Assembly (NCBI GenBank): GCA_016933055.1
Contig: JAFGBS010000027.1
Coordinates: 30,001-62,000 of the forward strand
Direction: 5' to 3'
Length of the DNA: 32,000 nucleotides
DNA from: Promethearchaeota archaeon
GTDB lineage: Archaea > Asgardarchaeota > Lokiarchaeia > Sigyniarchaeales > Promethearchaeaceae
Positions 1 to 10,018 of the stretch are shown piece by piece. Each line of letters starts with the position of its first letter. Within the stretch, counting starts at the first letter, position 1. The notes under the pieces were generated by a model. It did no database searches, had not been told where the DNA came from, and was given only the letters and a program-made list of their open reading frames with translations. Both the position numbers and the translations under genes were made by a program.

Positions 1-2268
1 AGCCCGTGCAAAAGCAATGAGCTGTCGCTGTCCGGTAGAGATATTAACTCCCCCTTCTTTGATTGAGGTTTGATATTTATCGGGAAGTTTTTCTACGAAA
101 TTATGTAACCCAAGGAATTTCGAAATTTCTACCATCCTTAGTCGATCATCTTCAACTGGATTTTCAATTGCATAAAGCAAATTATTTTCGATGGTGTCAC
201 TGAATACGAAAATGTCTTGGGGAACCATGGAAATATATTCACGGAGGGTTTCCTTTTTTATTTTACGAATATCAATTCCATCCAGAGTAATCTTGCCGTC
301 ATCTACATCATAAAATCGCGCAATTAATTTGATGATGGTTGTCTTGCCTGCACCCGTATGACCCACTATTGCAATAGTTTTTCCTGCGGGTATTGAGAGA
401 TTTAAATTCTTTAGAACGTATCCTTTTGATTGTTCATGTTGAATTAATCGAATTTGTTCTTTGATGATTTGTTGCACATGAATAGGCAGTTCTGCAATTT
501 TTGCAGGGGGAACGTTCATTTGAGCAAGAAACCGTGCAATTTGCGAGGAATCCACTTTTTGACTTCCTTGTCCACGTCCGCTTATCATATTACCTCCTTC
601 ACCAGATTGTTGTCTTCCCCCCATCGAAGATACATTCATTTGTTGCTTTATGGCTTTTTCTAGCATATTAGTCATATTTTGGAACATCTGTTCCTTTTGA
701 GGAGTCCACTCTTGAGGGAGGAGGTCTTCATCATTGCCTGGTATCTCGACTCCACCAAAATCATTTTTGCACTCGGGGTGATTTTCAGCATACTGTGTTC
801 CGGGAACTGCATAACCGTAAGAACCCAAAATAGTATCAATCTTTTCGGGTATTGTCTTGAGATCTGTACCCATCAACTGCATGAATAAAGTTCGTCTAAT
901 CTGGGATGGAATTGTTGGCAATTGCTCCAATAAGTAGGAAGAGTATGGTTCTGGGAATTGTTTTACACGTTCTAATGCCATTTGGATCATGGGATTTTTA
1001 GCTGGCAAGAGTTCTGAATCTTTTTCTGAATCATCTCTTTTTTCATAGTTCTCTTCTGATCCATTCAAGCTGTATGCAAAGGATACATTTTGGAATTGGA
1101 TTGTTCCGTTTACTTGATTTAAAGATAAGGGATTTTTCGGTTCCTTGATTTCTACTCTTGTTTCAAGCAACGATAATATCCTATCTGCACTTGCAAATGC
1201 TGATTCGATGATGTTTTGAATCTGCAATAACATCATGAATGGTCGGAAAAATTGAGACAACATGGAAATAAACGCAGTTAACGTACCAACGGATGCGGCT
1301 ATCCCTAAAAGACTAATGTCTTTTACATAGAGAATACCTCCGGAAACCAGTATTCCAATTGTAAGTATTGTTGTAATGAATTGGATTGCAGGGATGAAGG
1401 TACCCATTAATCTTCGAATTTGGTACATCGCCTCGTAGTTCTGCTTATTTGCTTCGTTAAATTCATTTATTGCTTTCTCTTCTTGACCAAAAGCTTTTAC
1501 AGTTTTTCCTCCCTCAATATTTTGTTGAATCGAGGATGTTACTCCGCTAATGGTTTTTCTAGCTTTCTTGAAAGCTCTTATTGCAAATTTCCTAAATAAC
1601 CACATTAGAAATATGAAAACTGGGATAATTGTAAGACTGAAGAGCGTCAAGATTGGATTTAACAGAAACATTATGACTAGTGTGAGAATAATACTGATAA
1701 TACTCGTGATGATTTCTACGAATTGACCACCCACAAGCATATTTAGTTGATCAATATCATTAGTTAAGATAGAAATTATGTCACCAGAGGGTCTACTATC
1801 AAAAAATGATAAACTCATACCTTGCAGCTGGGAAAATTGGTCATTTCGTATGGACAAAACTACTTTTTGAGATAGTACCCCCATACCCATTAAACTGAGA
1901 TAATTAGAAACTCCTACAATGATTACCATTATTCCATATAATAGTGAGCGTGATTGTAGGAATTGCAATCGATCTGGTACTGCTGTATTCAATATACGAT
2001 CAATTATGCGTGCGGATAAGAGGGGGATAAATCCATTTATTACGGTCCCAACAATTAATAAAAAAAACAAAATGACGAATTTACCGCGATAGGGAGTTAA
2101 ATATGAAAAAATCCACTTCCATAAGGTTTTTCGAGAATGATCTAATTTACTTTTTCCTTCCATAAAGATCGGAGGCCCTCTACGAAATCCCGGTTGTCTT
2201 GGTTTATTTTCTAATTCTTGTTGTCTTTCTTGTTTAGTCTTATCTTTCTGTACATCTGCTTGACTCAT
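1..2268 (-). CDS. ABC exporter half-transporter (TMD+NBD, TM288-like subunit), 3'-partial, with ~210-aa insertion in the NBD
   Basis: Not in the ORF track because it has no stop in the window. ATG at 2268-2266 overlaps the upstream TGA (ATGA). Manual translation: MSQADVQKDK...GFRRGPPIFMEGK...SFFDSRPSGDIISILTNDIDQL (TMD)...AFASADRILSLL...IQFQNVSFAYS-[insert]-YVLKNLNLSIPAGKTIAIVGHTGAGKTT (Walker A)...EGGVNISTGQRQLIAFARA (non-canonical signature) at the window edge. No stops in the segments translated. Confidence 0.93.
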   Translation of the reverse strand, partial: MSQADVQKDKTKQERQQELENKPRQPGFRRGPPIFMEGKSKLDHSRKTLWKWIFSYLTPYRGKFVILFFLLIVGTVINGFIPLLSARIIDRILNTAVPDRLQFLQSRSLLYGIMVIIVGVSNYLSLMGMGVLSQKVVLSIRNDQFSQLQGMSLSFFDSRPSGDIISILTNDIDQLNMLVGGQFVEIITSIISIILTLVIMFLLNPILTLFSLTIIPVFIFLMWLFRKFAIRAFKKARKTISGVTSSIQQNIEGGKTVKAFGQEEKAINEFNEANKQNYEAMYQIRRLMGTFIPAIQFITTILTIGILVSGGILYVKDISLLGIAASVGTLTAFISMLSQFFRPFMMLLQIQNIIESAFASADRILSLLETRVEIKEPKNPLSLNQVNGTIQFQNVSFAYSLNGSEENYEKRDDSEKDSELLPAKNPMIQMALERVKQFPEPYSSYLLEQLPTIPSQIRRTLFMQLMGTDLKTIPEKIDTILGSYGYAVPGTQYAENHPECKNDFGGVEIPGNDEDLLPQEWTPQKEQMFQNMTNMLEKAIKQQMNVSSMGGRQQSGEGGNMISGRGQGSQKVDSSQIARFLAQMNVPPAKIAELPIHVQQIIKEQIRLIQHEQSKGYVLKNLNLSIPAGKTIAIVGHTGAGKTTIIKLIARFYDVDDGKITLDGIDIRKIKKETLREYISMVPQDIFVFSDTIENNLLYAIENPVEDDRLRMVEISKFLGLHNFVEKLPDKYQTSIKEGGVNISTGQRQLIAFARA

Positions 2269-4052
2269 TGAAATTTCCCTCCAGGAATAACGGGTGAAGA
2301 ATATTCGAACCCACCTTTTTGCTTCCTATACAAGGTTTCATAGATTTGCTTGTAAAGCACATTATCTTTCATTAATTCTTCATGTTCTCCCATTCCAACG
2401 ATTCTTCCCTTATCCAAAACGATAATAATATCCACATTGCGAATCGTAGAGACGCGTTGGGTTATGATGAAAGTTGTTGTATTTTGCATTACCTGTTCGA
2501 GGGCTGATTGAATTTTATATTCTGTTTCAACATCGACCGAAGACGTAGAATCATCAAAAATAAGAATACCAGGTCGAACTAGAATAGCTCTGGCAATGGA
2601 TAATCTTTGTTTCTGGCCTCCACTGAGTCTCGTACCTCTTTCCCCTACTAAACTATCGTATCCATCTGATAAAGATTCAATAAATGCATCCAAATTGGCA
2701 ATTTTTGCAACTCTCTTAATTTCTTCAAGAGTAGCGTCATCTTTACCAAATGATATATTTTCTGCAATGGAACGGTTAAACATGAACGTTTCTTGACTTA
2801 CAATTCCGATATTTTTTCTTAAATCTTGAATTTTATAATCTCTAACATCAACCCCGTCAATTTTCACAGCCCCTTGATGAACATCATAAAATCGCGGTAA
2901 GAGATTAATGATACTAGATTTCCCAGAGCCAGTGGTCCCAATTATTGCAATCTTTGCTCCCGGTGGCACTTTGAAAGAAATATTATGTAAAATCGGGTTA
3001 CTCTGGAGATACCCGAATGTAACATGTTCGAATTCTACTTTTCCTTTGAAACCTTTGGTGGGTACGGGAACCGCATCTTTTTTTTCTTGTACATCTGGTT
3101 GAGAATCAAATACCTCTTGAATTCGTACCAATGAGGAATCTGCTTGTACAAAGGCCAACATAATGTTAGAAAATATGGTAATTGACCAAGTGGAGTACCC
3201 AATGTACGATATTACCGTAGATATAATAGAAAAGGGTATCTCACCACTGAGATATAACCGACCACCAGACATTAGTGCTAATACAAACATCAAACCAACA
3301 ATTACAACGTTTAAAGGTAAAAAAACACTGGACCATTTAGCCGATTTCACACTTGCATTATAAAAAGCAGTATTTTTTCCGTCAAATTTTCTCTTTGCTT
3401 TCTTCTGGTTGGAAAAAATACGTACTACTTGAGCACCTAATATATTCTCCTGCATTTGTGAGGTCAAATCTCCAAATGTGACTCGAGTTTCTAGAAAAAT
3501 AGGCTTCAATTTGTAAGTAATGAGTAGAGAAGCAATAAGAGATATTGGAATGCCAGCGAATATCCATGCCAGACGTATTTCTAAGAGTATAGTCGATGTT
3601 ACAACGCCCACCATCTGAAATAACGCTTGGATTCCAGTAGCAAGTCCAAATCCAAAAATTTGAGTAGTTTGTTCCACATCGCTGGTTGCTCTTGAAATTA
3701 ATTGCCCCGTTTCTTGTCTGTCAAAGTAGGCAAACGATTGTTTGTAAATTGCAGTTTGTAAATCACTACGAAGCTCATATTGTGCTCGAGAAGAGACTTC
3801 TGCACTTTTTATTCTACCCCATCGACCGAATAAGAATCCAAAAAAACCAAATAACACTGAAATACCAAAATAAGTCCATAAATGACTGATTTCTGGTTTT
3901 GGGACACTAGGATCGAGTGCACCAACTAATCTCCCAATAAAAATTGGAGGAAATAGTGATGTTGCTACTGAAATAGCCTGGAAGAGAAAAGATAACCAGA
4001 AATTTCGCTTACTCCTCATCCAATACTTGATAATCATGCGCAAGGAATTCAT
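2265..4052 (-). CDS. ABC exporter half-transporter (TM287-like, degenerate-site subunit)
   Basis: N-terminal 6-TM domain; Walker A GTTGSGKS, signature LSGGQKQR, Walker B ILIFDDS (D replaces catalytic E), switch ITQR (Q replaces H). Confidence 0.95.
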   Translation of the reverse strand: MNSLRMIIKYWMRSKRNFWLSFLFQAISVATSLFPPIFIGRLVGALDPSVPKPEISHLWTYFGISVLFGFFGFLFGRWGRIKSAEVSSRAQYELRSDLQTAIYKQSFAYFDRQETGQLISRATSDVEQTTQIFGFGLATGIQALFQMVGVVTSTILLEIRLAWIFAGIPISLIASLLITYKLKPIFLETRVTFGDLTSQMQENILGAQVVRIFSNQKKAKRKFDGKNTAFYNASVKSAKWSSVFLPLNVVIVGLMFVLALMSGGRLYLSGEIPFSIISTVISYIGYSTWSITIFSNIMLAFVQADSSLVRIQEVFDSQPDVQEKKDAVPVPTKGFKGKVEFEHVTFGYLQSNPILHNISFKVPPGAKIAIIGTTGSGKSSIINLLPRFYDVHQGAVKIDGVDVRDYKIQDLRKNIGIVSQETFMFNRSIAENISFGKDDATLEEIKRVAKIANLDAFIESLSDGYDSLVGERGTRLSGGQKQRLSIARAILVRPGILIFDDSTSSVDVETEYKIQSALEQVMQNTTTFIITQRVSTIRNVDIIIVLDKGRIVGMGEHEELMKDNVLYKQIYETLYRKQKGGFEYSSPVIPGGKFQ

Positions 4053-4056
4053 TTTC

Positions 4057-5946
4057 TTAGCTCTCCGTCTGATGTGTTTCGAGAAGAGGTGTAGAAACTC
4101 CTACTCTATCTTCAAATTGACTATAATGTAATTCCGCGTAGAAACCGTTTTTGGCGATTAGCTCACTATGTGTACCTTGTTCCACAATATCCCCCTCGTT
4201 CATAACAAGTATTAGATCAGCATCTCGAATTGTCGAAAGTCGGTGGGCAATCACAAAACTTGTACGATTTTTCATTAAATCGTCCATTGCTCTTTGAATT
4301 AGGATTTCGGTTCGAGTGTCTACTGAGCTCGTAGCTTCATCCAGTATCAAAATCGAAGGATTGGCTAGTACTGCCCGCGCGATAGTTAAGAGTTGCATCT
4401 GTCCTTGGGAAATATTCGTTACTTCTTCATTAAGAACCATGTTGTAGCCATCGGGCAGTGTTCGAATAAAATGATCAGCGTTTGCAGTTTTAGCAGCTTC
4501 AATTACTTCTTCATCCGTTGCATCCGGTCGACCGTAACGGATGTTTTCTATAATAGACCCGTTGAATAACCATGTGTCTTGAAGGACCATCCCAAAGCAG
4601 CTTCTCAAGCTTTCTCGGGAATATTCACGAATATCATGTCCATCTACAATAATCGCTCCATTTTTCACATCATAAAACCGCATGAGTAGTTTTACCATGG
4701 TTGTCTTGCCAGCTCCAGTAGGTCCAACAATTGCAATTTTTTTACCCGGGTGGGCAACAGCAGAGAAATTTTTTATAATAATCTTGTTGGGGTTATATCC
4801 GAATTCTACATTTTGGAATTCTACTAACCCTTCAATACACATATTTACAAATGGAGTTTTACTATCGGCAATTTCTTCCTCCTCTTCCAAAAATTCAAAC
4901 ACTCTCTCAGCAGCAGCTGCAGTTTGTTGGAATGTATTAGATATATTAGCGATTTGGGTTAATGGACGTGTAAACGTTCGAACATATTGAATAAAAGCTT
5001 GAATGTTTCCTAATGTAATCGTACCATTAGCGGTTAAGATACCTCCTAATACTGCAACTACGACATAACCTAAATTACCAATAAATGTCATGATGGGCAT
5101 CATAAGACCAGCATAAAATTGAGATTTCCATGCGGATTCATAGAGTTCAGTATTGTGCTTATCAAATTTCTTCAAACTCTTTTCTTCCCCATTAAAAGCT
5201 TTCATCACCAGATGCCCTCCATACATTTCCTCAACATGCCCATTAATATGTCCTAAGGAATCTTGTTGTTGTTTGAAATATTTCTGTGAACGTTTAATTA
5301 TGACTCCAAGAAACAAGAGAGATAAGGGGATTATCACTAAAGATACCACTGTGAGTAACCAACTGATCGAGAACATCATCACTAATACACCGACAAGAGT
5401 AACCAGTGATGTTATGAGTTGAGTTAAGTTTTGACTTAAATTTTGATTTACTGTATCCACATCATTTGTAAATCTGGAAAGGACTTCTCCTTGTGTAGTG
5501 TTGTCAAAATATTTTAATGGCATCCTGTTTACTTTATCTGAAAGTTCCTTTCTCATTCGATATGCGATATCAGTACTAACATTCGCCATTATCCAACCCA
5601 TAACATAACTGAATAGAGCAGAAACAAGATAAAGACCTAACACAATCAATAATATTTTTCCAATCTCCCAAAAATCAATTGAACCTGTTCCGGAAATTTG
5701 TGCGATCAGTCCCTCAAATAGAGTTGTGGTAGCCCTTCCAAGAATTTTTGGTCCGACAATTGCTGCAACTGTTGATAACACTGCAAAAAAAAGAACTATT
5801 AGGAGAGACCATTGATACTTTCGCATATACTGGAACAATTTTTTCATTGCAGTGCTGAAATTCTTTGCTTTTTCCGTTCCCATTGCCATTGGTCCATGAC
5901 CACCTGGGCCAGAGGGTCCACGACGTTGTTTTGATGGTCCCATCAT
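4057..5946 (-). CDS. ABC exporter half-transporter (TM288-like, consensus-site subunit)
   Basis: Gly/Pro-rich N-terminal leader; Walker A GPTGAGKT, non-canonical signature ISQGQMQ, Walker B LILDEATS, switch IAHRLST. ATGA overlap with the upstream gene. Confidence 0.95.
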   Translation of the reverse strand: MMGPSKQRRGPSGPGGHGPMAMGTEKAKNFSTAMKKLFQYMRKYQWSLLIVLFFAVLSTVAAIVGPKILGRATTTLFEGLIAQISGTGSIDFWEIGKILLIVLGLYLVSALFSYVMGWIMANVSTDIAYRMRKELSDKVNRMPLKYFDNTTQGEVLSRFTNDVDTVNQNLSQNLTQLITSLVTLVGVLVMMFSISWLLTVVSLVIIPLSLLFLGVIIKRSQKYFKQQQDSLGHINGHVEEMYGGHLVMKAFNGEEKSLKKFDKHNTELYESAWKSQFYAGLMMPIMTFIGNLGYVVVAVLGGILTANGTITLGNIQAFIQYVRTFTRPLTQIANISNTFQQTAAAAERVFEFLEEEEEIADSKTPFVNMCIEGLVEFQNVEFGYNPNKIIIKNFSAVAHPGKKIAIVGPTGAGKTTMVKLLMRFYDVKNGAIIVDGHDIREYSRESLRSCFGMVLQDTWLFNGSIIENIRYGRPDATDEEVIEAAKTANADHFIRTLPDGYNMVLNEEVTNISQGQMQLLTIARAVLANPSILILDEATSSVDTRTEILIQRAMDDLMKNRTSFVIAHRLSTIRDADLILVMNEGDIVEQGTHSELIAKNGFYAELHYSQFEDRVGVSTPLLETHQTES

Positions 5947-8162
5947 GACAATGCATCCTCCTTAAGTTGCGAAAAAGCTATTTCTCTGTAAGTTTCGCAT
6001 GTTTTCAATAATTCGTTGTGTGTTCCTTTTCCTACAATTTTACCTTCCTCTAATACTATAATTTGTTCAGCATACATGACCGTGGAAACTCGCTGTGTAA
6101 CGATTAACACAGTGCAATCTCCTATATATTTCTTTAGCGCACGTCTTAAGGCTGCATCCGTCTTAAAATCGAGAGCAGAGAAACTATCATCAAAAATTAG
6201 AATAGGTGACTGTCTTATCAATGCCCGAGCAATCGATAAGCGTTGTTTTTGCCCCCCACTGACGTTCGATCCTCCTTGAGAAATTGCTCTTGAAAATCCT
6301 TCAGAACTGGATTCAATGAATTGCTTTGCTTGAGCGATTTCAATAACTGATTGAATTAATTCCTGATCTGCATTTTCATTTGCATACCTCATATTACTCT
6401 CAATCGTGCCAGAAAAAAGAGTATTTTTTTGAGGAACATACCCTATTTGTTTCCGAAGATCATCTTGAGTTATGTCCCGTATATCTATTCCATCTATTAA
6501 AATTTCACCTGAGCTTATATCATAAAACCGGGGAATCAAATTAACGAGTGTAGATTTCCCTGAACCAGTTGCTCCAATCAAAGCAGTGGTTTCTCCAGGT
6601 TTTGCAGTGAAACTGATACTATGCAAAGCATCTTCCTCGCCTTTCGGGTATCGAAATGATACATTGCGAAATTCAATCAATCCTTGCGGTGGCTTAGAAA
6701 ATGTTTTAGGTTTTATGGGATCATTGATGATAGGTTCAGTATTTAATACCTCTCGGATTCGTGTTGCAGAAACGGATGCACGAGGTAGGATTATAAACAT
6801 CACTGAAATCATAAGAAAAGACATCACAATCTGCATTGCATAAGTGAGAAAAGCCATAAGATCTCCCACTTGCATAGTTGCATCGGCAATTTCATGTCCT
6901 CCGACCCAAATAATTCCAATAGTAAGTCCATTCATTATGAGCATCATCATTGGCATGAGAATAACTATAATGCGATTGGTAAATAGAGTAACTTTTGTGA
7001 GATCCAAATTTGCCTTATCAAACCGTTTTTCTTCAAACTTTTGTCTGTTGAATGCTCGTATAACCATTATACCAGATAAATGTTCCCGAGCCACCAAATT
7101 CAAGCGATCGATTAAAATTTGCATACTTTTGAATTTAGGATAACCCACTGCAAAAGTGATCATTACCAAACCTATTAATATAAGGACTGCTAATGCAATT
7201 ATCCACCACATGGATTGCGCTTTGCCTAATGCTCTGATTATTCCTCCAATACCCATAAGAGGAGCAAATGCAACTAAACGGATTAGGAAAAAAATGACCA
7301 TTTGGAGTTGAGTAACATCATTAGTTGAGCGAGTAATTAAGGAAGCTGTAGAATATTTATCAAATTCTGTGCTTGAGAATCCTTCTACTTTTTCAAAGAC
7401 GTCATACCGAACGTCTCGGGCCATTCGGGCGGCTACTTGAGAGGCAAAATACCCCACAAATATTGTACATACTACAGACAGTAAAGTAAATAGTAACATG
7501 AATGCCCCCACTCGGAGGATGTAATTGCGCTGTAATTTGTCCATATCCATGCCCACAGAAATATATTCTGCACGAATAGCTGTAACTGTTATCTGATCGA
7601 TCCAGCTTTCACCTAACGCTGAAAAACTATCATAGATACCTTCCGCAATCATAGAACGAACTGATAAAGGTAAAGTGGTTATATTATCCCAACTTGTTAT
7701 ATTAAATCCAATATCAAAACCCCTCTCGATGGCCATTTCTGGATTTAAGATAATCTGATTAATCGCAAAACTAGCCAGAATTGCTTTGGTCATATTTTGA
7801 TAAAGGTCAGTTTTATCTTTTCTCCTTAAATTATTAAGAACATAAACTGATTGATTTTCTAATAATGGATAATCATTAACATATTCGTCATAGTTCTCAG
7901 AACTATTATCTAATAGAGTGTAATATCCAAAAACCATTGATTCCGTTTCATTGTCCCAAAAAAGCGAGGTATAAAACATTTGTTCTTGACTATAGGCTAT
8001 TGGAGCTGAACTTTCAACCCCTCCATGCTGAATTCCTGTATCCACAATATTCGACATGTAATCAGGTAATAATAAATCTAAATTCACTTGTGCAAAGAGC
8101 AATGCAATGGCGAACAAAATCATACCGACATAGGGTTTTGCATATTTTACTATTCGAACCAT
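5943..8162 (-). CDS. ABC exporter half-transporter (TM287-like) with large TM1-TM2 extracytoplasmic loop
   Basis: Walker A GATGSGKS, signature VSGGQKQR, Walker B LIFDDSFSALD, switch VTQR. Loop of about 170 aa between the first two TM helices. Confidence 0.95.
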   Translation of the reverse strand: MVRIVKYAKPYVGMILFAIALLFAQVNLDLLLPDYMSNIVDTGIQHGGVESSAPIAYSQEQMFYTSLFWDNETESMVFGYYTLLDNSSENYDEYVNDYPLLENQSVYVLNNLRRKDKTDLYQNMTKAILASFAINQIILNPEMAIERGFDIGFNITSWDNITTLPLSVRSMIAEGIYDSFSALGESWIDQITVTAIRAEYISVGMDMDKLQRNYILRVGAFMLLFTLLSVVCTIFVGYFASQVAARMARDVRYDVFEKVEGFSSTEFDKYSTASLITRSTNDVTQLQMVIFFLIRLVAFAPLMGIGGIIRALGKAQSMWWIIALAVLILIGLVMITFAVGYPKFKSMQILIDRLNLVAREHLSGIMVIRAFNRQKFEEKRFDKANLDLTKVTLFTNRIIVILMPMMMLIMNGLTIGIIWVGGHEIADATMQVGDLMAFLTYAMQIVMSFLMISVMFIILPRASVSATRIREVLNTEPIINDPIKPKTFSKPPQGLIEFRNVSFRYPKGEEDALHSISFTAKPGETTALIGATGSGKSTLVNLIPRFYDISSGEILIDGIDIRDITQDDLRKQIGYVPQKNTLFSGTIESNMRYANENADQELIQSVIEIAQAKQFIESSSEGFSRAISQGGSNVSGGQKQRLSIARALIRQSPILIFDDSFSALDFKTDAALRRALKKYIGDCTVLIVTQRVSTVMYAEQIIVLEEGKIVGKGTHNELLKTCETYREIAFSQLKEDALS

Positions 8163-8164
8163 TT

Positions 8165-8692
8165 TTATGTATCCTTTTGTAGTTTTTCTTTCGCTTCCGT
8201 AATTTTCTTTAACATTTCTTGGTGAAATTCTTCCATTTCTTCTAGTTTTTCTCTTTTTTGGTCAACTGATTCATTACATGAAAGTATTTTATTAATAGGT
8301 CTAAATCTGCTGAAATCTTCTTGATGGAGATCTACCTCGTCTAAATATTGCTCTAAATGTTCCTGAACTGTTTCAAACATGGATAGAATTGTTTGTTTGA
8401 GAACTGCATGTCGTTGTTTCCCGAATTCATTCAGAAAATAGAAATGCTTCGGTCTCCCGGGTATTTCTACATCTTCTTCTTTCATATTAAGGTATCCCAT
8501 TTCGTGCATTTTTTTTATTGCTCGATAAATTCGGGTATGGGGAATATGGGGATCTATCTCTGTTAAATCGCCGTATGTGAAACCATTGGGATTATCATTA
8601 TTGGCAATTGTATTTAACAATAGCAATTCCTTGAAATTTTCCATAAATTTTTGCATGAAATCATGAATGTAACTCAATCGGTTTGTTGTCAA
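8165..8692 (-). CDS. PadR-family winged-helix transcriptional regulator with C-terminal coiled coil
   Basis: GFTYGDL...HTRIYRAIKKMHEMGYL...GRPKHFYFLNEFGK matches the PadR helix/wing pattern. First gene of the ABC operon (2-nt gap). TTG start; an ATG at MQKF is an alternative. Confidence 0.8.
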   Translation of the reverse strand: MTTNRLSYIHDFMQKFMENFKELLLLNTIANNDNPNGFTYGDLTEIDPHIPHTRIYRAIKKMHEMGYLNMKEEDVEIPGRPKHFYFLNEFGKQRHAVLKQTILSMFETVQEHLEQYLDEVDLHQEDFSRFRPINKILSCNESVDQKREKLEEMEEFHQEMLKKITEAKEKLQKDT

Positions 8693-9067: not shown

Positions 9068-10018
9068 ATGTCGATTAAACAATATAGTGAAAAAGTCCCA
9101 AAGTCAAAATGGCTCGCTCATAACTATAAATATTACACACGAATGGCGGAAACGGAAAAAGATTTTAATCGAGTTTTCCGAATCCGATACTCAGTATTTC
9201 ATGATGAACTAAACGAGGCACCATATAATGAAGAGGGTCTTGATTATGATGCCTTTGATATTAACAAATGTGCGGATTATGTCTTGTTGTGTGTAAAAGA
9301 AACTGAAGAAATAGTGGGTTTATACCGAACTATACCACATAGCAAAGCTATTCCCGAATTAGGCTATTATTACTCCGCAATTGAGTTTAACTTGGATGCA
9401 GTTATAAATGATCCTAAGTACAGCAATTCCGTATCCGATCTAGGGCGTTTAGTTATACTGAAAGAACATCGTGGTGGAACTCAGCTCCTTCTCCTTTGGA
9501 TGGGTTTGTTACAGTTTTGTATTAACAATAAAGTTCGTTATCTCCTCGGATGTGGTTCCCTTGCTGCAGATATCACTAAAAAAGATGTCGAAGATTTATT
9601 GTGTATATTAGAGAGTAAAGGAATGATTAAACACAAGCCCAATGTCTTTCCTCGACCCCCATCCGAACAAAGAATTCTGTGTAAAAAATATATGGATAAA
9701 GACCCCAATCCTGAGTTATTAGAGAAAAGAGATGATTTAATCGATTTTAATATCCCGGAAAAGCCCTCGAAAAACATAGAACTACCCTTTCTAATCCGTA
9801 GATATCAACAAGTTGGGGCTGTACTTATCGGCTATCCAAGTTTTGATGGATACGACTTCGGAACTTACGATCTCTTTGTTATGATTGATCGAAAAACCTT
9901 GAAAACTTGGATTGCAATATTCGGTATCAAAGCAAAATTATTAGCCGATAGGCTTCATAAAGGTAAGAAGAAAAAGAAAAAAATCGTATTGTATCCGCGT
10001 AAAAATAAAAAAAGTTAG
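9068..10018 (+). CDS. GNAT-fold N-acyltransferase, OlsB (ornithine N-acyltransferase)/COG3176-like
   Basis: RIRYSVF..E...GLDYDAFD...IVGLYR...YYSAIEFNL...DLGRLVILKEHRGG..LLLLWMGL...YLLGCGS...LPFLIRRYQQVGA..IGYP.FD.DFGTYDLFV follows the OlsB-family motif order over the full length. Lys-rich C-terminal tail. Confidence 0.8.
   Translation: MSIKQYSEKVPKSKWLAHNYKYYTRMAETEKDFNRVFRIRYSVFHDELNEAPYNEEGLDYDAFDINKCADYVLLCVKETEEIVGLYRTIPHSKAIPELGYYYSAIEFNLDAVINDPKYSNSVSDLGRLVILKEHRGGTQLLLLWMGLLQFCINNKVRYLLGCGSLAADITKKDVEDLLCILESKGMIKHKPNVFPRPPSEQRILCKKYMDKDPNPELLEKRDDLIDFNIPEKPSKNIELPFLIRRYQQVGAVLIGYPSFDGYDFGTYDLFVMIDRKTLKTWIAIFGIKAKLLADRLHKGKKKKKKIVLYPRKNKKS

Follow-up and report, generated by a model that had tools for sequence, protein, structure and literature searches.

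Few protein modules are as highly conserved as the nucleotide-binding domains (NBDs) of ATP-binding cassette (ABC) exporters, and the turn between their strands beta1 and beta2, beside the residue that stacks against adenine, is nearly always only a few residues long. What is a large additional domain doing at precisely this turn in an exporter of an Asgard archaeon? The question is raised by P0002, an ABC half-transporter gene at the start of a 32,000-nucleotide stretch of DNA from a Promethearchaeota archaeon (GTDB order Sigyniarchaeales; assembly GCA_016933055.1, contig JAFGBS010000027.1, positions 30,001 to 62,000), hereafter the window. An initial annotation had placed an in-frame insert of ~210 amino acids in the NBD at window positions 418-1071. 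This is borne out by alignment with the three sister half-transporters encoded alongside, in which residues 400-616 of P0002 (window 421-1071, ~217 residues) are unmatched.

P0002 is encoded on the minus strand, as are all features described below unless noted otherwise. Its open reading frame (ORF; window 1-2268, residues 1-756) crosses the window start and, as the initial annotation anticipated, can be completed by extension on the contig, which yields a protein of 849 amino acids (L001:1222-3768). The final 93 residues, including the Walker B Glu768 and the H-loop His799, thus lie outside the window (L001:1222-1500). Pfam recognizes ABC_membrane (PF00664, residues 65-344, 1e-47) and ABC_tran (PF00005, residues 619-771, 4e-31), and the insert falls between them. 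It sits between the A-loop Tyr399 and strand beta2, where the sisters and solved relatives have 4-7 residues. Strand beta1 (IQFQNVSFAY, window 1072-1101), modeled as a strand by AlphaFold2, ends with Tyr399, and F392, F397 and Y399 are invariant in the four paralogues and ten homologues. Strand beta2 (YVLKNLNLSI, window 391-420) is placed by paralogue and PDB alignments and by AlphaFold2, and the Walker A motif (GHTGAGKT, window 340-363) by alignment. In P0002, 236 residues separate the A-loop Tyr from Walker A, compared with 23 in P0003, 23 in P0004 and 24 in P0005, in agreement with the earlier claim that the sisters have a short loop at this site. P0002 therefore departs from the short beta1-beta2 hairpin (~22-24 residues from Tyr to Walker A) that is usual in type IV exporters with a degenerate site. 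The PDB relatives ABCB4, ABCB1, TmrA and TM288 align through residue 400 and pick up again at ~614-618, and of the 276 PDB sequences with matches at E<=1e-20, none covers residues 401-613. One MAFFT alignment placed the beta1 strand of the sisters on the last helix of the insert, as if a pseudo-beta1 had been duplicated there. We rejected this placement, because the true beta1 with Tyr399 is invariant upstream and AlphaFold2 renders residues 596-616 as helix.

The insert is confirmed as a real and native part of the protein. Misassembly and random linker growth are excluded, because the insert is conserved at one site in 91 genomes, is under selection, and has a junction that is bridged by an independent contig. 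This contig, from a metagenome run of 2017, is 100% identical over the junction between insert and beta2 (window 308-487), and it bears, for that boundary, on the matter of coverage that the initial annotation had raised. Two metatranscriptome runs from the source study contributed no sequence. The same run is a hot-springs metagenome and holds further 100%-identical short contigs of the P0002 gene; the source sample of the window is apparently a 2021 sediment.

A search with the insert alone, using a word index, retrieved nine full-length homologues with 31-39% identity over ~88% of the insert, all from metagenome-assembled genomes (MAGs) labeled Promethearchaeota or Hermodarchaeota by their submitters. 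An exhaustive hidden Markov model (HMM) search of 1.84 billion representatives matched just 12 representative proteins; the nine of these that were retrieved either carry ABC-exporter sequence on one or both flanks or are fragments cut inside the insert. In a profile search of the phylum, the insert was found in 91 of 400 genomes, all within the order of the window and always at the same site. It occurs in 80 of 135 genomes of family f3, in 4 of 4 of f4, in the single genome of f2 and, more weakly, in 5 of 13 of f1, compared with none of the ~247 genomes of the remaining families. The initial annotation had considered that homologues might show no conservation. With these 91 genomes that objection fails, and the insert is conserved across Asgard homologues of one order.

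Across the family the insert is modular. It ranges from 109 to 332 residues and comprises a module A, present in 0, 1 or 2 copies, and a module B that is always present. The spacing between Tyr and Walker A is accordingly 132 residues in proteins with module B only (~740 amino acids), 171-292 in A+B proteins (824-1011 amino acids) and 355 in the A-A-B form, which is found in P0015 and G195 (969 amino acids). Forms from family f1 combine a Lys/Glu-rich or degenerate module A with a recognizable module B. In the 16 loci that were fetched, the upstream partner subunit has the canonical spacing of 22-23 residues, and the spacing in the downstream subunit is 132-355. Some genomes (L026, which is G184:C37:19500-29500, and G216:C68) encode two tandem pairs of partner and insert-bearing subunit, one with an A+B protein of 950 amino acids and the other with a B-only protein of 743. 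In contrast, the second pair in the operon of the window (P0005 and P0004) is insert-free.

A search with the transmembrane domain (TMD) alone separates the host proteins sharply. Orthologues from within the order share 43-57% TMD identity (33-41% for f1) and have ORFs of 737-1011 amino acids; the best matches from outside the order share 30-35% and have ORFs of ~600-670. We built a tree of the transporter core, with the insert removed, from 29 insert-bearing sequences, four homologues from outside the order and P0004. All 29 insert-bearing sequences form one clade (support 100/99) that spans four families, and the four outside homologues and P0004, all with a spacing of 23 residues, fall outside it. 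This single clade points to one insertion event near the base of the Asgard order. Sequences with B only or with A-A-B branch from among the A+B proteins, which indicates that they arose through loss and duplication of module A. The genome of the window belongs to f1, yet P0002 groups with f3 sequences (98/94) and apart from six f1 orthologues, and its TMD is 50-54% identical to those of f3 and 33-41% to those of f1. This placement suggests lateral transfer within the order, or an old paralogy followed by differential loss.

The layout of the insert was drawn from alignments and two AlphaFold2 runs, which agree: one of the NBD with the insert (mean predicted local distance difference test score, pLDDT, 75) and one of the insert alone with 33 sequences (mean pLDDT 79.5). 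The parts that the initial annotation had listed are all present, from the acidic linker through a first helical block and the Gly/Gln/Met-rich stretch to the closing helical block. The N-terminal tether (residues 400-424, window 997-1071) has a pLDDT below 50, the lowest conservation in the insert (0.43) and a variable length; it is acidic in P0002 and Lys/Ser/Pro-rich in homologues. Module A (residues 425-504, window 757-996) is a Met-rich unit of 4-5 helices with a pLDDT of 92-98 in the insert-only model, and its invariant columns lie in the motifs NPM, K..(L/F)PEPYSS, P..IR, MG, P..ID, GYAVP.T and HPE..T.F. The middle tether (residues 505-521, window 706-756) again has a pLDDT below 50 and varies strongly in length (ratio of nonsynonymous to synonymous substitution rates, dN/dS, 0.24-1.6).

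Module B, with a pLDDT of 90-96 in the insert-only model, begins with the long helix B1 (residues 522-548, window 625-705; pLDDT 90-95), which has a conserved M.K.LE..L and is present in all family members, including the B-only forms. The loop that follows (residues 549-572, window 553-624) is the Gly/Gln/Met-rich stretch noted earlier. It had been described as low-complexity, but proves to be a semi-conserved loop inside module B, with a family consensus of approximately GMGGEGGxMMGG and a central acidic residue. The loop is predicted to be disordered (pLDDT <50) yet is conserved, with a column conservation of 0.64 and a dN/dS of 0-0.27. The B2 helices (residues 573-616, window 421-552), placed by alignments and AlphaFold2, contain the conserved R.LA...IP and P..V..AI.E and end in the junction motif HEQSKG. 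In the AlphaFold2 models the last of them (596-616) is continuous with strand beta2 (617-626). Residues H611-G616 are invariant among the ten closest homologues, and the junction HEQSKGYVL is near-invariant.

More than 40 residues of the insert are invariant across the ten closest sequences, and both modules are under purifying selection. Pairwise dN/dS values are mostly 0.1-0.25 for the modules (0.09-0.49 for module A), compared with 0.04-0.10 for the NBD and 0.24-1.6 for the tethers. Methionine accounts for 7-12% of residues in most inserts, 5% in that of P0002 and 2-5% in several B-only forms.

No already described domain was recognized in the insert, as the initial annotation had supposed, by Pfam, PDB, Foldseek, VIA-align or ESM Atlas searches. 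At E<=10, Pfam returned nothing for the P0002 insert and no recurrent match across 33 inserts, and a PDB sequence profile search with the insert returned nothing, CFTR included. The best Foldseek match to the PDB had an E-value of 2.8 and was not credible. Structure searches of the ESM Atlas gave template modeling (TM) scores no higher than 0.35 with the whole insert as query and 0.53 with module A as modeled by the Atlas itself, the latter on short helical proteins, and a language-model feature search of the same resource gave no usable match for either. We rejected as homologues the FliG, MgtE_N, DUF3106, Metal_resist and other rows of the Atlas structure search, none of which exceeds a TM score of 0.53 and all of which cover only short helical stretches. 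The best VIA-align row for module B, the C-terminal four-helix domain of KaiA, was likewise rejected: its score is below the ~13 that VIA-align itself takes as meaningful for helical bundles, and the two share 12% identity with no signal at the sequence level. We treat the likeness as one of common helix packing and not of homology. The insert thus matched no known family or fold in these searches, a negative that is provisional for module A, as this module was not folded alone. Our literature search found no paper that joins Asgard, ABC transporter, insertion and nucleotide-binding domain. A survey of Asgard transporters describes the ABC1 exporters as homologues of multidrug exporters, and the passages that our search retrieved from it mention no NBD insertion (PMC7997004). 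Neither Pfam and the PDB nor the literature that we could search yielded a description of these two helical modules, which occur in one Asgard order only.

Which ATP site does the insert adjoin? In the alignment of the four paralogues, P0002 has the Walker B sequence LDEATSS, the H-loop AHRLST and the signature ISTGQ, and P0003 (595 amino acids, window 2265-4052) has FDDSTS, TQRVST and the canonical LSGGQ. All orthologues of P0002 keep LDEATSS and AHRLST together with a non-canonical signature, ISTGQ or ISIGQ, and DDSTS, TQR and LSGGQ are invariant in 14 partner orthologues. The closest PDB half-transporters to P0002 are TmrA (1e-103) and TM288 (2e-100), and its NBD superposes on those of ABCB1, TmrA and MsbA at ~2 Å over 222-236 residues. 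On these grounds P0002 resembles TM288 and TmrA and is the catalytically competent subunit of a predicted heterodimeric type IV (ABCB-like) ABC exporter with one degenerate ATP site, in which P0003, with its degenerate Walker B and H-loop, is the partner. The pairing rests on conserved gene adjacency: the stop codon of P0003 overlaps the start of P0002, and the two subunits are neighbors in every fetched locus, which upholds the pairing with the gene at 2265-4052 that the initial annotation had suggested. NBD dimers assemble head-to-tail. Given this geometry and the consensus catalytic residues of P0002, the insert is expected to flank the A-loop of the consensus, hydrolytic ATP site.

We tentatively infer, at somewhat short of an even call, that the insert is a cis-regulatory or docking appendage that acts on the ATPase cycle, with its state set by what module A binds. 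A new helical domain apparently entered the beta1-beta2 hairpin immediately after the A-loop Tyr in an ancestor of the Asgard order. Because the last helix runs straight into beta2 via HEQSKGYVL, module B would be fixed in place next to the pocket that binds nucleotide at the consensus ATP site, where it might cap or buttress the adenine side of the active site. The tethered module A might bind either to the NBDs or to a ligand or partner in the cytosol, and the two modules could jointly tune NBD closure and ATP turnover. Such an appendage would be functionally akin to the regulatory insertion of CFTR, but made of folded modules. The rigid link between helix and beta2, the very high conservation of the junction near the A-loop and the constant retention of module B suggest that the insert acts on the nucleotide pocket or on NBD closure; a binding role for the Met-rich module A is suggested by its tethering and variable copy number. 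Several points weigh against a regulatory appendage. The predicted TM score (pTM) of the AlphaFold2 models is just 0.48-0.53, which makes the relative placement of the modules and the NBD uncertain, and any contact that a module may make with the ATP site or with the NBD of the partner hypothetical. In addition, the CFTR insertion flanks a degenerate site and is mostly disordered, so that the analogy is positional only, and a flexibly tethered module of variable copy number fits pure recruitment equally well. A more specific form of the proposal, which we consider doubtful, is that the insert founds a new family of ABC-transporter control domains from Lokiarchaeia-type Asgard archaea, in which module B rigidly caps the consensus ATP site and one or two tethered Met-rich modules bind a cytosolic signal, cargo or partner, thereby gating the pump.

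It is also conceivable, though on balance rather unlikely, that the insert serves as a recruitment platform only. In this case the tethered, Met-rich module A would capture cytosolic cargo, such as a hydrophobic peptide or a lipid-linked substrate, or dock a partner, and so bring the cargo to the exporter or fix the exporter's location while leaving ATP turnover unaltered, and module B would be a rigid stalk. Met-lined hydrophobic binding surfaces are known, and the 7-12% Met of most inserts recalls them. The presence of module A in 0-2 copies on disordered linkers is typical of adaptor modules, and its purifying selection fits such a role as well. However, B-only paralogues keep the insertion without the module that would do the recruiting, conservation peaks at the beta2 junction by the ATP site, for which a passive stalk would have no need, and a comparison of homologous loci revealed no candidate partner gene conserved nearby. 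Purifying selection bears also on the improbable alternative that the hairpin has merely expanded, by slippage and duplication, into a harmless loop with no specific function. The tethers, being of low complexity, variable in length and weakly constrained (dN/dS up to 1.6), do look like the products of such growth, and CFTR too tolerates an insertion at this hairpin, which lies on the surface. The modules between them do not: their dN/dS values are well under 1, AlphaFold2 folds both with pLDDT >90, more than 40 residues of the insert are invariant in the ten closest sequences, and every member of the four-family clade has retained the insert.

The Met content invites a further explanation, in which the Met-rich helices and the GMGG..MMGG loop would bind a thiophilic, soft metal (Cu(I) or Ag(I)) or become oxidized, and so switch the pump. 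M-x-x-M or MMGG-type spacing accompanies the Met enrichment in many homologues, and the weak Atlas structure rows for module A include a cluster containing Metal_resist (TM 0.53 over 61 residues), but TM scores in this range mean little for short helical stretches. The insert of P0002 itself has just 5% Met, and several B-only forms have 2-5%. There are no His or Cys partners and, in the neighborhoods examined, no metal-homeostasis genes, and we judge a metal or redox sensor very improbable. Finally, an assembly chimera, a frameshifted fusion or a mobile, intein-like element is practically out of the question. The source is a MAG, and mapping did not place the long contigs of the source run over the region, which is what would make a chimera thinkable, but the insertion occupies the same codon position in ~90 independent genomes, its frame is open, its junction residues are conserved, and the contig of 2017 spans the boundary with beta2 at 100% identity. 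Pfam gave no match to intein or to transposase or endonuclease families among the insert sequences, and a mobile origin was rejected because every clade member has the insert and the phylogeny is consistent with vertical descent.

Whatever its precise role, a folded and selected domain of 109-332 residues, kept through the history of an Asgard order, splits an NBD beside the active ATP site, and would add two domain families that are absent from current libraries. If the insert is regulatory, the exporter could offer a tractable prokaryotic model for insertions at the CFTR regulatory insertion site that affect NBD dimerization and ATP turnover. If the control-domain proposal is true, archaea would have arrived independently at the "regulated NBD" principle, of which the other known examples are eukaryotic ABCC proteins such as CFTR. 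If the insert recruits a partner, export across the membrane could be coupled to machinery of the cytosol in the archaea most closely related to eukaryotes.

P0002 is the last of four consecutive ABC half-transporter genes, tightly packed or overlapping, each with PF00664 and PF00005. Pfam and alignment assign the other two to a second pair without the insert (window 4057-8162), consisting of P0005 (window 5943-8162, degenerate type) and P0004 (window 4057-5946, consensus type). Between its first and second transmembrane helices, P0005 has ~170 amino acids (residues ~35-210) with several N-x-S/T sequons that the other three half-transporters lack, and its ABC_membrane match begins no earlier than residue 185; this segment is probably an extracytoplasmic domain. 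A 175-amino-acid protein heads the gene row upstream of the transporters (window 8165-8692). It is a probable PadR-like winged-helix regulator: its Pfam PadR match (E=0.0019) is under the curated cut-off, and it is weakly similar to the PadR gene at the matching position of one homologous locus. The order PadR, partner, insert-bearing subunit recurs in homologous loci. Farther upstream of the row, on the plus strand, window 9068-10018 encodes a GNAT-family protein (Acetyltransf_5) with a weak autoinducer-synthase-like match. On the other side, immediately outside the window, the gene for a small GTPase of the Ras family (Pfam Ras, 1e-50; L001:639-1208, plus strand) is convergent to the 3' end of P0002 at a distance of 10 bp. 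We considered this GTPase as a partner and rejected it, since it is not conserved beside the homologues.

How, then, does this system compare with those already known? In TM287/288, TmrAB, LmrCD and BmrCD, as in P0003 and P0002, halves with PF00664 and PF00005 are encoded by adjacent or overlapping genes, and a half with the consensus Glu and His and a non-canonical signature is combined with a partner that has Asp, Gln and LSGGQ. These exporters differ in having a beta1-beta2 turn of 4-7 residues where P0002 has the insert. LmrCD is repressed by the PadR-type LmrR (PMC4534193), and a probable PadR-like gene lies upstream here too. Because PadR-controlled heterodimeric exporters of this kind are known, export of toxic compounds would be the default expectation for the pump.

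Accessory domains are familiar in other ABC proteins, where they regulate transport or recruit substrate: MalK, MetN and ModC have C-terminal regulatory domains, OpuA has CBS domains, and PCAT1 and HlyB have N-terminal C39 or C39-like domains. These are cytoplasmic extras like the insert, but they are terminal fusions of known folds, whereas the insert splits the beta-subdomain of the NBD, and Pfam and Foldseek searches found no likeness between them. By position, the closest analogue is the regulatory insertion of CFTR rather than the R domain or the ABCB linker, with which the initial annotation had drawn its parallel. CFTR NBD1 forms the degenerate ATP site of that protein. The regulatory insertion (residues 404-435) separates strands beta1 and beta2 of this NBD; it is mobile, and it was thought to hinder NBD dimerization. 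Removal of most of it leaves regulation intact, shortens open bursts and modestly alters gating (PMC2217481). The two insertions share their topological site, between beta1 and beta2 beside the A-loop aromatic residue, and both are lineage-specific and have mobile segments. However, the CFTR insertion comprises 32 largely disordered residues in the NBD that contributes its Walker A to the degenerate site, whereas that of P0002, with no sequence likeness to it, places 217 amino acids, including two modules with pLDDT >90, in the NBD of the consensus site.

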